64,000 bases of DNA from the IMG/VR virus record IMGVR_UViG_3300008266_011056; one strand, 5' to 3'. The position numbers and the translations under genes were made by a program. Of the stretch, positions 9,398 to 14,180 are shown piece after piece. The notes below the pieces were generated by a model that saw nothing but the letters and a program-made list of their open reading frames with translations, was not told the origin of the DNA and ran no database searches. This DNA comes from an uncultured virus (IMG/VR IMGVR_UViG_3300008266_011056) (taxonomy: Duplodnaviria; Heunggongvirae; Uroviricota; Caudoviricetes). How positions within the stretch are numbered: position 1 is the first letter of the stretch; each line of letters begins with the position of its first letter.

Positions 9398-10312
9398 TTA
9401 GTCGTCATTGGCGAGCTTGGCGAAGAAGGATAGTGATTCATCGTCATCTTCTTCATACTCACGTTTAGGTTGCGAAGGTGCTGCATGTGGTTTAGCAGCT
9501 GCTTTTGGTTTAGGTGGTGATTCAAACTCTTCGTTATCTAGATCTTGTGCAGCAGGTAGGGAACTACCACTAGCATTAAGCACATTCATTAGTTTAGTCT
9601 TTAGTTCATCGTAAGACTTAAAGTGCTTAGGATCCAAAAACTCTTGTAGAGAATGCTGGCTGTTCCAAATCTTTTCCATCTCATCATCGTCAGCTAGTAC
9701 TGATGGTGATTCAAATTCAGACTTATCGTAGTTACGATAACCCTCTACATTACGAATCTTGAGTTTGAAGTTAGCACCCTTCCAGAAGTCAAAAGGATTA
9801 ATTGGATCCTCATCTTCAAATTGAGGCTGCATAACATCCTTGATCTTGTCGAAGATCTTCTTGCCGAACTTATAAAGGAATACTTTACCTTCGTTCTCTG
9901 GATGCGCAGGATCTTTGACTACATAGATGTTAGAAATGTAAGTCAATCTACGCTTTTGTTTACGTACGATGTCTTTGTTAGACTCAAGACCTGTAGCCCA
10001 CAATTCGGTGTTAAGCTCAGAAACAGGGTCTGGCTTACCTAATGTAGTTAGTGAATTTTCGATGTACCACTTACCTGTAGGACCCTGGAATCCATGATTC
10101 CAAATACGTGTCCAAGGAAGTTCTTCACCTTTAGGAGGGGGTAGAAAACGAATAACTGCAAATCCGTTTCCTGATTTATCTACTTCTGGTTGCCAGAAGC
10201 GATCATCTTTTTGCGATTCTTGACCTTGGGGTTGCGCGATCTTCTCAACCTCTTTCATCAATGAATCAAAATTACCACGACCCTTCTTCAGGGCAGAAAA
10301 ATCTAATGCCAT
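9398..10312 (-). CDS. gp32: Single-stranded DNA-binding protein
   Basis: DDRFWQP..GNGFAVIRFLP..WYIENSLTT..FDFWKGANFKLKI..NYDKSEF; acidic tail. Confidence 0.97.
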   Translation of the reverse strand: MALDFSALKKGRGNFDSLMKEVEKIAQPQGQESQKDDRFWQPEVDKSGNGFAVIRFLPPPKGEELPWTRIWNHGFQGPTGKWYIENSLTTLGKPDPVSELNTELWATGLESNKDIVRKQKRRLTYISNIYVVKDPAHPENEGKVFLYKFGKKIFDKIKDVMQPQFEDEDPINPFDFWKGANFKLKIRNVEGYRNYDKSEFESPSVLADDDEMEKIWNSQHSLQEFLDPKHFKSYDELKTKLMNVLNASGSSLPAAQDLDNEEFESPPKPKAAAKPHAAPSQPKREYEEDDDESLSFFAKLANDD

Positions 10313-12491: not shown

Positions 12492-12764
12492 CTAAGCGGT
12501 AGATTTCTTAGTAACTTTTACATCTGGAAGTTGAGAAACAAAACCATTCAAAGCTTGCGCTTTATTAATAATATCTGTTTCAGTGGGGTATGATGGAAAG
12601 CCTGGATGATCAGGTGGTGTTGCACCGGCGTGGCGAGCGTTTTCTACTTTAACTTGCCAGTCGTTGGAAACTTGATCTCGCTTACTGTAATAATCTTCAG
12701 TAAGCATTTCCTTGGCCATCTTAAGAAGTTCGAGACGGATCTCGAATGGTGACATATTACTCAT
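12492..12764 (-). CDS. Hypothetical phage protein
   Basis: PFEIRLELLKMA..YP..II.KA..L..FV; strong AAGGAG RBS. Confidence 0.75.
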   Translation of the reverse strand: MSNMSPFEIRLELLKMAKEMLTEDYYSKRDQVSNDWQVKVENARHAGATPPDHPGFPSYPTETDIINKAQALNGFVSQLPDVKVTKKSTA

Positions 12765-12825
12765 TTACATCTCCTTTTGTGTGTTTGTGTGATGGTAGTT
12801 TTAGAGATCTACCAACTCAATTTAT

Positions 12826-12900
12826 TTATCGATTAGCGATATACATGGTAATTTCAAAACCAAAACGCATATCTTGAGCTGCAGGTGTAGTCCACTTCAT
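12826..12900 (-). CDS. pqqA: Pyrroloquinoline quinone precursor peptide
   Basis: Hand translation MKWTTPAAQDMRFGFEITMYIANR*; W-x-x-P and GFE-x-T-x-Y with the E-x3-Y core; AAAGGAG RBS. Confidence 0.95.
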   Translation of the reverse strand: MKWTTPAAQDMRFGFEITMYIANR

Positions 12901-12976
12901 ATTTTTCTCCTTTATGGCGGCACTATTGCCGGTCCATATTATCTATTGAACATATGAAGTGAATCTACTAAAATAT

Positions 12977-12984
12977 TATTTATA
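12977..12984 (-). promoter_or_regulatory. T4-type late promoter upstream of pqqA
   Basis: Exact TATAAATA on the minus strand, about 75 nt upstream of the pqqA ATG. Confidence 0.7.
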
Positions 12985-13006
12985 CTACCGTACTGAAAAT
13001 CATTAA

Positions 13007-13360
13007 GGTAGCTGATTGGGTAATAAGGACAGCTACCGAAACCCCATCTAGCAATTTAAGCTGCTAGAGCGTAGTACTCGTCATTTGCGATTACTTATTT
13101 GCTTCATTAACGTCGATCGCCTGACGTGTTGTCCACTCCCCTACTCTTGACCCTGTCGAAACCATGTCTGGCCCCTCAAAAGAAGACTTTACCTTATTAC
13201 GAATATCTCGTTCAGGTGGAAGAGGTCCACACCCTAAACGATTCCATTCACTCTCAGTATAGTAGTACATATCTACTGGCATACAATCTCCTTTTGGTGG
13301 ACCAGGCGGGAGTCGAACCCGCGTCCAGAACCCTTTTCAGTTTGCATCATACAACAATTA
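13007..13360 (-). ncRNA. ssrA: Two-piece (circularly permuted) tmRNA: acceptor piece about 13360-13295, intervening segment 13294-13175, coding piece 13174 to about 13007; tag ANDEYYALAA
   Basis: Acceptor end GGACGCGGGTTCGACTCCCGCCTGGTCCACCA lies upstream of 5' end GGGCCAG..GGTTTCGAC; the 7-bp stem has the G3:U70 pair; tag ORF at 13088-13056. Confidence 0.93.
13091..13282 (-). CDS. Small ORF starting in the tmRNA intervening segment
   Basis: AAGGAG RBS directly after the CCA; MPVDMYYYTESEWNRLGCGPLPPER...; reads on into the coding piece. Confidence 0.5.
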   Translation of the reverse strand: MPVDMYYYTESEWNRLGCGPLPPERDIRNKVKSSFEGPDMVSTGSRVGEWTTRQAIDVNEANK

Positions 13361-13367
13361 AAAATAT

Positions 13368-13559
13368 TTATTTACTAAACTCTTTGTTTAAACTATAGTA
13401 AGCCCAAGCACCCATAAACGTATTCGGTTTACTCTTGTACCTATCGATATTCTCTAAACAAACCCTACATTGCGCGTCATCCTCATACAGACGTAAAATT
13501 AATTTATCTTTATCTGGAAAGTCTGATTCACGTATATTTCTACAGGAGCAAATTATCAT
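13368..13559 (-). CDS. bfd: Bacterioferritin-associated ferredoxin-like [2Fe-2S] protein
   Basis: MIICSC..CRVC matches the Bfd C-x-C...C-x2-C pattern, with a shorter spacer. Confidence 0.7.
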   Translation of the reverse strand: MIICSCRNIRESDFPDKDKLILRLYEDDAQCRVCLENIDRYKSKPNTFMGAWAYYSLNKEFSK

Positions 13560-13586
13560 AACCTATTCTCATCCGACCACAATAAG

Positions 13587-13615
13587 ATTTTAACGTCAAG
13601 GCAACAGAAAATCAA
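13587..13615 (-). promoter_or_regulatory. Sigma70-like promoter
   Basis: TTGATT-N17-TAAAAT upstream of bfd and the tmRNA. Confidence 0.65.
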
Positions 13616-13628
13616 TACTTTTGGTAAA

Positions 13629-14180
13629 TTAAACGTAATGTGCGTAAGTACCGATTATATATTTTGGTTTGTCTTTAGGTGGCATTCCTGCATGAGGATA
13701 CATCCAAAGTGGTGGAAAAATTAACATTCTACCTGCAACTGGACTAATTTCAATATCAAAATCAGGGAATACTGTTTTACCCTCTTCATTATCATCTAAG
13801 TATATAAATCCAACTAAGTAACGTCTTGCGCTATTATAATCAGCTACATCTACATGATAGTCGAAGTAACGTTCTTCGTTTTCATACTTCTTAATACGAA
13901 TTTCTTCTAATGCTTGAATCTTAGGTGGATCTCTGTAGTTAATATGATTAAAGTATTGATCGAATGCCTTTATAGAAACATCCGTAAGATACTCTACTAT
14001 AGGTTCCCAACCAGGGGTCTTATTAATGTTAAGTTGATCGAACTTATAACCTACCGTTCTCTTTTCTTCCCATTGCTCTTTTTCCTTCTCAAATTGCTCA
14101 ATCATTTTTTCACAATGTTGTTTAGGTAACACATTGTCAATTGTTAAAATTAAATCAGTTAGTTTTGTATCTTGTTTCAT
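13629..14180 (-). CDS. 2OG-Fe(II) oxygenase (prolyl-4-hydroxylase-like)
   Basis: H-x-D (YHVD), YLDD..G.T.F, FPP..YPH, KY. Confidence 0.85.
   Translation of the reverse strand: MKQDTKLTDLILTIDNVLPKQHCEKMIEQFEKEKEQWEEKRTVGYKFDQLNINKTPGWEPIVEYLTDVSIKAFDQYFNHINYRDPPKIQALEEIRIKKYENEERYFDYHVDVADYNSARRYLVGFIYLDDNEEGKTVFPDFDIEISPVAGRMLIFPPLWMYPHAGMPPKDKPKYIIGTYAHYV

Follow-up and report, generated by a model that had tools for sequence, protein, structure and literature searches.

A probable small-protein gene nested in the intervening segment of a phage two-piece tmRNA

The DNA analyzed here (the window, 64,000 nucleotides [nt] of the uncultured virus IMGVR_UViG_3300008266_011056 from IMG/VR) comes from a T4-like freshwater (lake) phage whose record is complete, with 165,076 bp and terminal repeats, and it has a G+C content of about 35%. 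It encodes a transfer-messenger RNA (tmRNA) in the circularly permuted, two-piece arrangement, and our subject is an open reading frame (ORF) that begins in the intervening segment, or spacer, between the two pieces of this gene (Table 1). Two Rfam models recognize the tmRNA above their cut-offs: RF04321 (tmRNA_permuted) at 13056-13356, with 139.8 bits against 47, and RF01850 (beta_tmRNA) at 12994-13404, with 137.4 bits against 84. The T-arm, the 3' acceptor strand and CCA lie 5' of GGGCCAG, as they do in a permuted tmRNA, and the acceptor stem has 7 bp, of which the third is G.U. Because GGGCCAG pairs with CTGGTCC, the spacer can be drawn as the 120 nt that separate CCA from the 5' acceptor strand, and the domain borders that ARAGORN reports for an identical copy (L120; L numbers denote the loci compared) also yield a 120-nt spacer. 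The predicted RNase P position follows from the known processing of tmRNA and tRNA. The tag opens with an alanine resume codon and has a hydrophobic C-terminus. No SmpB gene was found in the phage genome, so the tmRNA would depend on SmpB of the host. Rfam detected no glutamine riboswitch at E ≤ 1 within 12500-13700; the accessible text of PMC9004378 describes one at the 3' end of the ssrA gene of phage Melnitz.

For the ORF itself, the initial annotation had described a Shine-Dalgarno (SD) sequence directly after CCA, an ATG 5 nt further on, and a frame that fills the spacer of roughly 120 nt, crosses the cut at 13174 and stops at 13091; every one of these coordinates proved correct. The stop codon is followed by TC and then by the resume codon, a gap of 2 nt. 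The predicted RNase P site divides the frame into 36 codons in the spacer and 27 codons plus the stop in the coding piece, and since it lies 81 nt ahead of the stop, maturation would sever the ORF from its stop codon. The SD at canonical spacing, the ATG and the excess of synonymous differences described below are those of a coding gene. The ORF also exceeds chance, because none of 200 dinucleotide shuffles (made for the identical copy L120) contained an ATG ORF of equal spacer coverage. The minimum-free-energy (MFE) fold predicted for 13305-13165 has −53.5 kcal/mol (z = −5.06; 0 of 200 shuffles equally stable), and in it a helix that closes the spacer extends the acceptor stem. A compensatory change in this helix, from A..T to T..A, is seen in L202. 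A further ORF of 25 codons (MMQTEKGSGRGFDSRLVHQKEIVCQ, 13273-13350, minus strand) runs through the acceptor piece and ends in a TAG that overlaps the first letters of the spacer ORF (ATGCCAGTAG); it is probably incidental, as it lacks an SD and its sequence is dictated by the tmRNA.

Table 1. Features of the tmRNA locus and its surroundings, in window coordinates
Feature	Position	Strand	Basis or remark
Circularly permuted (two-piece) tmRNA	12965..13387	−	ARAGORN borders; tag ANDEYYALAA
Acceptor piece: 5' pairing region, T-arm (GGACGCGGGTTCGACTCCCGCC), 3' acceptor strand CTGGTCC, ACCA (13298-13295)	13295..13356	−	Rfam alignment
Spacer-closing helix (predicted, 12 bp), 5' strand, contains SD	13285..13296	−	MFE fold
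Spacer, 120 nt, absent from mature tmRNA	13175..13294	−	Between CCA and 5' acceptor strand
Shine-Dalgarno AAAGGAG, directly after CCA	13288..13294	−	ATTGT (5 nt), then ATG 13282-13280
63-codon ORF and stop TAA (13093-13091), MPVDMYYYTESEWNRLGCGPLPPERDIRNKVKSSFEGPDMVSTGSRVGEWTTRQAIDVNEANK	13091..13282	−	Homologues known
Codons 1-26, module under protein-level selection (MPVDMYYYTESEWNRLGCGPLPPERD)	13205..13282	−	Comparison with L202
Closing helix (predicted), 3' strand AGTCTTCTTTTG, inside ORF	13177..13188	−	MFE fold
RNase P cut (predicted)	between 13175 and 13174	−	Mature 5' end of coding piece
5' acceptor strand GGGCCAG	13168..13174	−	Pairs with CTGGTCC, 13299-13305
Tag frame GCA...TAA, encoding ANDEYYALAA and stop	13056..13088	−	ARAGORN; resume codon GCA at 13088
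gp32-type single-stranded-DNA-binding protein	9398-10312		phrog_224, E = 9e-120; part of T4-like gene content
Exonuclease, endolysin-like protein, 2OG-Fe(II) oxygenase	around tmRNA locus		T4-like gene content

Three lineages of nested copies were aligned at the DNA level: the window type (L200 and L201), L202-L205 with the variant L206, and L207. An alignment of intervening segments from related phages had been put forward in the initial annotation as a check on conservation, and in it the ribosome-binding site, the start codon and the peptide are all kept. The SD reads AAAGGAG in the window and in L207 and TAAGGAG in L202, each time 5 nt from the ATG, and indels in the linker are multiples of three. 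Over codons 1-26, where nearly all changes are synonymous, the window and L202 differ at 18 nt, with 2, 0 and 16 differences at the first, second and third codon positions; counted per codon, 15 changes are synonymous and 1 is non-synonymous (sd = 16, nd = 2; pS about 1.0, pN 0.032). The 27 tail codons encoded by the tmRNA proper provide an internal control, in which the same comparison gives 3 synonymous and 9 non-synonymous changes (5, 6 and 7 differences by position). The flanking acceptor piece is identical at 59 of 60 positions. Differences from L207 are distributed 7/2/16 over the codon positions, and a contig in the freshwater DNA run X2 has a single substitution in the ORF, a synonymous one (GAG to GAA, 13253). 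The contrast between the third-position differences of codons 1-26 and the tmRNA-encoded control indicates that the constraint targets the protein and not the RNA, and that it acted while the gene was nested. Selection on the protein is confined to the first ~26 residues; the other 37, of which 27 are encoded by what becomes the 5' part of the mature tmRNA, form a passenger tail.

Residues 6-25 of the ORF carry the core YYY[ST]ExEWxRLGCGPLPPER of an unnamed family of small phage proteins, in which E, W, R, L, G, C, G, P, P, E and R are invariant in an alignment of 44 sequences. When 5.8 billion proteins were searched with the window ORF, 17 of 17 candidates had E ≤ 0.01. Six of them (P0001-P0006) represent this nested ORF as it occurs in related tmRNA genes; they align with 84-98% of the query at 76-98% identity, and their C-termini read GPDMVSTGSRVG, which is tmRNA sequence. 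Ten others (P0007-P0010 and P0012-P0017, 51-67 amino acids [aa]) have only the N-terminal block YYY[ST]ESEWNRLGCGPLPPER[DN] in common and unrelated C-termini, and P0011 is a frame from a related tmRNA that does not contain the motif. A family profile was built from 44 sequences, namely 39 of the 46 distinct locus-derived sequences and 5 database proteins; L206, L209, L226, L233, L235, L237 and L243 were left out as near-duplicates or for a long N-terminal extension from the first ATG. Among 1.84 billion representatives this profile matched 50 proteins at E ≤ 0.001, of which 46 have 40-90 aa and the other four 104, 124, 142 and 765 aa. In the phage's own genome the nested ORF is the sole copy (E = 5.4e-29 with the family profile). 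The commonest free-standing members have a C-terminal module, GNPxIDGKxxKGYN, that is absent from the window ORF, where residues encoded by the linker and the tmRNA take its place; it is missing from other family subgroups as well. The existence of these free-standing small proteins, together with the conservation of ribosome-binding site and peptide, supports the earlier suggestion that a small peptide is expressed from the precursor.

Several further searches bear on the identity and range of the family. ESM Atlas returned only clusters named 'hypothetical protein', as did the cluster look-up, and of 3 candidates for longer fused forms none reached E ≤ 0.01. A likeness to CKS2 (9 residues, SEEEWRRLG, E = 0.98) was taken as chance. 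P0020, a cluster member of 433 aa without the motif, was set aside as a clustering artefact; to judge by reading its sequence, without a library scan, it looks like a transposase. Among GenBank phage records, a collection that may not include the window's own record, tblastn with a free-standing family member and megablast of 11 kb gave no match, and blastn of the tmRNA region gave only short conserved pieces in 4 records. We also considered a homing endonuclease or other mobile-element ORF and rejected it, as the window ORF matches no LAGLIDADG, GIY-YIG or HNH domain in Pfam or PHROGs and, at 63 aa, is too small.

We used the family alignment to scan viral contigs and obtained 58 loci; three (L255-L257), which are copies of one protein of 459 aa that shows the motif only weakly (E = 6e-4), were set aside, leaving 55 small ORFs. 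Eight of these (4 distinct sequences) are nested in the spacer of a permuted tmRNA and 47 are free-standing. ARAGORN places a permuted tmRNA on the same strand 94-1080 nt downstream of 25 of the 47, and Rfam adds tmRNAs in 5 of the 14 loci that have at least 1 kb downstream and no ARAGORN call, for a total of 30/47, or 25/34 if the count is restricted to loci with 1 kb or more downstream. Upstream, a tRNA ends within 70 nt of 28 of the 47 (25 tRNA-Met, 3 tRNA-Ala). As nested copies have the CCA of the tmRNA in the corresponding place, the ORF in both layouts starts a few to a few dozen nt behind a tRNA-like 3' end. Altogether, 38 of 55 family loci lie in or directly before a permuted tmRNA.

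In L219 a promoter-like site is followed by tRNA-Met and the family gene; two tiny membrane-peptide ORFs come next, and another promoter-like site precedes the tmRNA. The second of the two peptides (MNQDYSFAIGVVVVAIVFLLIL type; L219:1653-1801, plus strand) belongs to a second family, of 22-24 aa, for which a hidden Markov model finds 29 ORFs at E ≤ 1e-3, including 5 seeds. Of these, 24 are in free-standing loci of the YYYSExEW family, between the family gene and the tmRNA where inspected, one is just upstream of the tmRNA (L207) and four are inside spacers (L047, L111, L073 and L251). The other hydrophobic ORF of L219 has 27 aa and lies ahead of the membrane peptide. The window holds no member of the membrane-peptide family (best E 0.69). 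In L251 the YYYSExEW family gene is upstream and the membrane peptide in the spacer, and in L207 the positions are reversed; hence, two unrelated small genes alternate between a place before the tmRNA and one inside it. The spacers of L071, L072 and L017 hold a divergent copy of the motif, WYYTENEWSRLGxxGPLPPERN, which in L071 and L017 is preceded by no ATG, GTG or TTG. The open frame of this type begins about 70 nt ahead of the spacer, passes through T-arm and CCA and closes shortly before the resume codon, with an in-frame GTG (at −70 and −28) or ATG (at −64) directly after a TAAATA motif. By eye, the differences between L071 and L072 are mostly synonymous. If translated, these copies would start inside the acceptor piece of the tmRNA.

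To ask how common spacer ORFs are, we drew spacers from a scan for the T-arm/CCA pattern (at least 118 stretches), from the neighbors of the 90-aa gene downstream (80 loci, 55 with a tmRNA) and from the family loci. In the 257 sequences listed, ARAGORN found 161 permuted tmRNAs with 132 distinct spacers, or 105 after merging those that share 8-mers. A spacer was counted as ORF-bearing if an ATG ORF covered at least 80% of it, and expectations were taken from 200 dinucleotide shuffles of each. For spacers of at least 110 nt, 12 of 21 are ORF-bearing in the sense direction and 0 of 21 in antisense (0.72 expected). The corresponding values are 9/39 and 2/39 at 80-109 nt (2.9 expected), and 3/34 and 0/34 at 40-79 nt (3.5 expected). 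Over all spacers of at least 60 nt, 23 of 87 bear an ORF. By source, ORFs are present in 14/51 spacers of the pattern scan (the matches listed, unselected for ORFs), 5/29 of the neighbors and 5/14 of the family set. They start 5-15 nt after CCA (9-15 nt in 21 of 23). An SD-like motif (AGGA, GGAG or GAGG within the first 12 nt) is present in 17 of the 23 ORF-bearing spacers and in 1 of the 64 others (Fisher p = 3e-12).

The ends of the spacer are shaped by its closing helix. The first 8-12 nt pair with the last nucleotides, for example AAAGCACA...TGTGCTTcTGAT ahead of GGG, and TGA occupies positions −4 to −2 before the cut site in 62 of 87 spacers. Eleven of the 23 ORFs end at this conserved TGA, 1 nt before the cut, one ends 15 nt before it, and 11 enter the coding piece. 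Four unrelated ORFs end in VSL and a stop because the closing helix encodes just that. The cargo differs among close relatives: L134 and L135 have a near-identical tmRNA backbone, the first with a clean 54-aa ORF and the second with none, and close relatives carry unrelated ORFs in the same slot (54 aa in L134, 78 aa in L123, 60 aa in L150, 64 aa in L175). The ORF of L123 (L123:2132-2365, plus strand, in a 186-nt spacer) matches the C-terminal end of phrog_4098, of unknown function, at E = 1.1e-10. This makes it a second case of a spacer ORF that has relatives beyond tmRNA genes. None of the 13 further spacer ORFs tested had a significant match in Pfam or PHROGs. Contigs of the freshwater metagenome runs X15 and X2, compared with window positions 12950-13420, join the acceptor and coding pieces while skipping 101-120 nt, and two of six such joints hold 55 or 74 other letters in between. 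Such joints across other spacers show that spacers are replaced among co-occurring relatives.

The stretch itself is contained in freshwater DNA metagenomes, with shares of 0.33-0.96 in 14 runs, and in RNA runs only at shares of 0.04-0.07. Contigs of the runs X15, X16, X18 and X2 were aligned, and those from RNA runs come from relatives, as they are only 90-95% alike. They cover 13005-13165 and 13294-13326 and not the spacer, which makes them uninformative on expression of the ORF, and RNA contigs from two studies stop at 13164/13165, near the predicted 5' end of the coding piece.

Considering these results together, we regard it as likely that the ORF is a genuine, selected small-protein gene, nested in a spacer that is removed as a functional phage two-piece tmRNA matures. 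The primary transcript of the tmRNA would then double as an mRNA. Since the polymerase transcribes the SD about 100 nt ahead of the strand that pairs with it, ribosomes could load co-transcriptionally, before the closing helix forms. The translating ribosome would hold the closing helix and the acceptor stem open as it reads the spacer and then 81 nt of the coding piece; termination would occur at the conserved TAA, which is 2 nt short of the resume codon. Only then would the RNA fold and become a substrate for RNase P and the 3'-end enzymes. Maturation and translation of the full ORF would thus be mutually exclusive on one molecule, which would tie protein output to transcription of the tmRNA and limit it by processing. 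Were cutting to come first, the product would be a 36-codon message without a stop.

A number of observations weigh against the gene as just described, or against a role for it beside the tmRNA. The SD is paired in the predicted 12-bp helix, in the precursor and in the excised spacer alike, and this would impede initiation once the RNA has folded. Contigs from RNA runs represent only the mature parts of relatives' tmRNAs, and translation is something we infer from sequence. Pfam has no family at E ≤ 1 for the window ORF and four family members, PHROGs none for five of six proteins and one match at E = 0.094 for the sixth, and the best PDB sequence has E = 0.98. The AlphaFold2 (AF2) model is weak (predicted local distance difference test [pLDDT] score of 67, two short helices), and Foldseek reaches only E = 5.3 in the PDB. 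With neither library nor fold matches and a weak model, any function is a guess. Of the 34 free-standing loci with at least 1 kb downstream, 9 show no tmRNA. The family is near only 2 of the 80 loci that neighbor the downstream 90-aa gene, both identical to the window, and most tmRNA-bearing relatives of the phage have no family member nearby. The linkage to tmRNA could therefore be inherited gene order within one broad phage clade rather than functional.

Whether the protein has a role connected with the phage tmRNA or with translation, or whether the slot is merely permissive, is close to an even bet; the former is our leading guess because the family is linked to tmRNA genes. In a permissive slot, small genes would insert and be expressed without harming the RNA, the protein would be unrelated to tmRNA or rescue, and the neighborhood would reflect inherited order and local rearrangement. 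We give this reading somewhat less than an even chance. It accounts well for the unrelated ORFs of the close relatives L134, L123, L150 and L175, for ORF-free sister spacers such as L135, for the endings in VSL and a stop that arise merely from the closing helix, and for the unrelated membrane-peptide family that likewise alternates between spacer and upstream positions. It accounts less well for the 38 of 55 loci in or directly before a permuted tmRNA, as a tmRNA of any kind is reported from only 2.3% of phage genomes (PMC9004378, accessible text), or for the nested copy being the phage's only one; these points argue for a link without proving it.

The initial annotation also raised a self-regulating loop, which can be put in a form that resembles ArfA. 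Released by RNase P and 3'-end processing, the 120-nt spacer would be an mRNA with SD, ATG and 36 codons and without a stop. Ribosomes that reach its end would need rescue by the (phage) tmRNA, which would add ANDEYYALAA to the peptide and so mark it for degradation. We think this unlikely, and equally so its consequence, that the peptide would accumulate only when trans-translation capacity is exhausted or from unprocessed precursor; such a loop would refine the reading as a nested, selected gene and not exclude it. The cut lies 81 nt before the stop, the selected codons 1-26 are wholly within the spacer, and the tail past the cut is free of coding constraint. ArfA has an active N-terminal part and a dispensable C-terminus, and a constrained N-terminus with a free tail resembles this. 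The stop is beyond the cut in all three lineages with an SD-led ATG (the window, L202/L206 and L207); as it has been kept there though synonymous sites are saturated, the read-through state would be old and not a recent accident. However, free-standing members have ordinary stops and the conserved GNPxIDGKxxKGYN that nested forms lack. Moreover, 12 of the 23 spacer ORFs stop inside the spacer (11 at the TGA) and 11 run past the cut; with about half ending inside, a non-stop design is not a rule, and a self-tagging loop appears not to be a general design. The SD, too, is still paired in the predicted fold of the excised spacer, and a comparison with Pfam at E ≤ 1 turns up neither ArfA nor any other family. 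By the same analogy the protein might be an accessory ribosome-rescue factor encoded by the excised spacer, its synthesis gated by tmRNA maturation and trans-translation in an ArfA-like feedback, a proposal that we consider doubtful.

That the frame is accidental, a chance ORF or part of a conserved RNA element with AAAGGAG as the purine-rich strand of the closing helix, is very improbable: although the first four letters after CCA ([ATG]AAG) and the closing helix are kept in ORF-free spacers too and the spacer is strongly structured (z = −5.06), 16 of 18 differences fall at third positions, the motif recurs in free-standing proteins whose flanks differ, none of 200 shuffles equals the coverage of the ORF, and SD-like motifs are nearly confined to ORF-bearing spacers (17/23 against 1/64).

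Permuted two-piece tmRNA genes have been reported from Caulobacter and other Alphaproteobacteria, some Betaproteobacteria, Cyanobacteria, and marine myophages such as Melnitz (PMC9004378, PMC11915505). The gene in the window resembles them in the order of acceptor piece, CCA, intervening sequence and coding piece, in the G.U third pair and in the alanine-type tag ending in ALAA; a further likeness is its place in a T4-like phage of streamlined aquatic bacteria. The only contents of an intervening sequence noted in the accessible text of PMC11915505 are a tRNA-Ala gene and a repetitive element. The accessible text of these reports treats this sequence as discarded RNA, whereas here it would hold a conserved protein gene that brings an SD and a start codon with it. 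Coding frames in segments removed from a structural RNA at maturation are known from Coxiella, where an intervening sequence of the 23S rRNA contains the S23p ORF (PMC4990558), and from homing-endonuclease genes in group I introns of tmRNA genes (PMC11915505). Unlike these, the present case involves neither an intron nor a mobile-endonuclease gene, and the closing helix supplies the SD and, in relatives, often the stop codon.

ArfA is a small ribosome-rescue protein whose mRNA loses its stop codon and which is repressed by trans-translation (PMC10107115). The likeness lies in a small ORF cut from its stop by RNA processing, a functional N-terminal part, a dispensable tail and a connection with tmRNA, read in our case from the sequence alone. 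The window ORF is not a member of the ArfA family, having no Pfam match at E ≤ 1 and no PDB sequence match below E = 0.98, and it differs further in that a tmRNA precursor would be the site of the cut and tRNA-processing enzymes its agents, and in that free-standing relatives have normal stops. BrfA is a small rescue protein of the same kind as ArfA. Dual-function small RNAs that encode a peptide include SgrS/SgrT, RNAIII/hld and SR1/SR1P, and the tmRNA precursor would resemble them in combining an RNA function and a small protein in one transcript. Unlike in those RNAs, the coding part would be discarded from the mature RNA and the two functions would exclude each other on each molecule.

Nested ORFs in stable-RNA precursors and dual-function RNAs are thus known kinds. 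We found no mention of a protein-coding ORF in a tmRNA intervening sequence in the accessible full-text literature, whose coverage leaves out most subscription journals and supplements; a Sinorhizobium small-proteome paper, in its accessible text, concerns the tmRNA tag frame. As far as can be seen, the YYYSExEW family is new, and so are the way in which it and the membrane peptide switch between upstream and nested sites, the finding that SD-like motifs are almost confined to spacers with an ORF, and the putative long-standing read-through state in this family.

If these readings hold, the intervening segment of two-piece tmRNAs, so far deemed throw-away RNA, is a gene slot for which the closing helix gives a ribosome-binding site and often a stop codon, and it offers a natural system for asking whether translation and tRNA-type processing compete on one transcript. 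The YYYSExEW family and the 22-24-aa membrane peptide, whose only known context is tmRNA, would be candidate modulators of ribosome rescue during infection. Should that be true, the YYYSExEW protein, the 22-aa membrane peptide and the two-piece tmRNA would form a previously unrecognized phage trans-translation cassette. The locus is of interest for work on tmRNA, on phage small proteins and on genome annotation, and for the last it carries a warning, since a gene caller reports one half of such a locus and an RNA finder the other.

Two small ORFs flank the tmRNA. Immediately upstream lies one of 63 aa (13368-13559, minus strand) with a CxC...CxxC pattern (MIICSCRNIRESDF...CRVCLENI), for which there is no Pfam match at E ≤ 1 and no PHROG match at E ≤ 0.001. 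Its stop codon overlaps an ATAAATA motif (13371-13365), a candidate match to the T4-type late promoter consensus. On the other side, 65 nt downstream of the tmRNA as drawn by ARAGORN, a 24-aa ORF (MKWTTPAAQDMRFGFEITMYIANR, 12826-12900, minus strand) matches PqqA (PF08042) with 38.9 bits against a cut-off of 21.1. A weak Rfam match to the ribosomal S15 leader at 12788-12883, on the plus strand and thus opposite to pqqA, scores 21.5 bits (gathering score 39.5; E = 0.021) and in all likelihood arose by chance. The same PqqA-type peptide gene is present in 12 of the 80 relatives' loci. Phage PqqA has been known since 2020 from T4-like phages of Methylophilaceae in Lake Baikal, with 35% G+C, in a report whose accessible text does not mention tmRNA (PMC7678222). 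By this parallel, the host of the phage may be a methylotroph.

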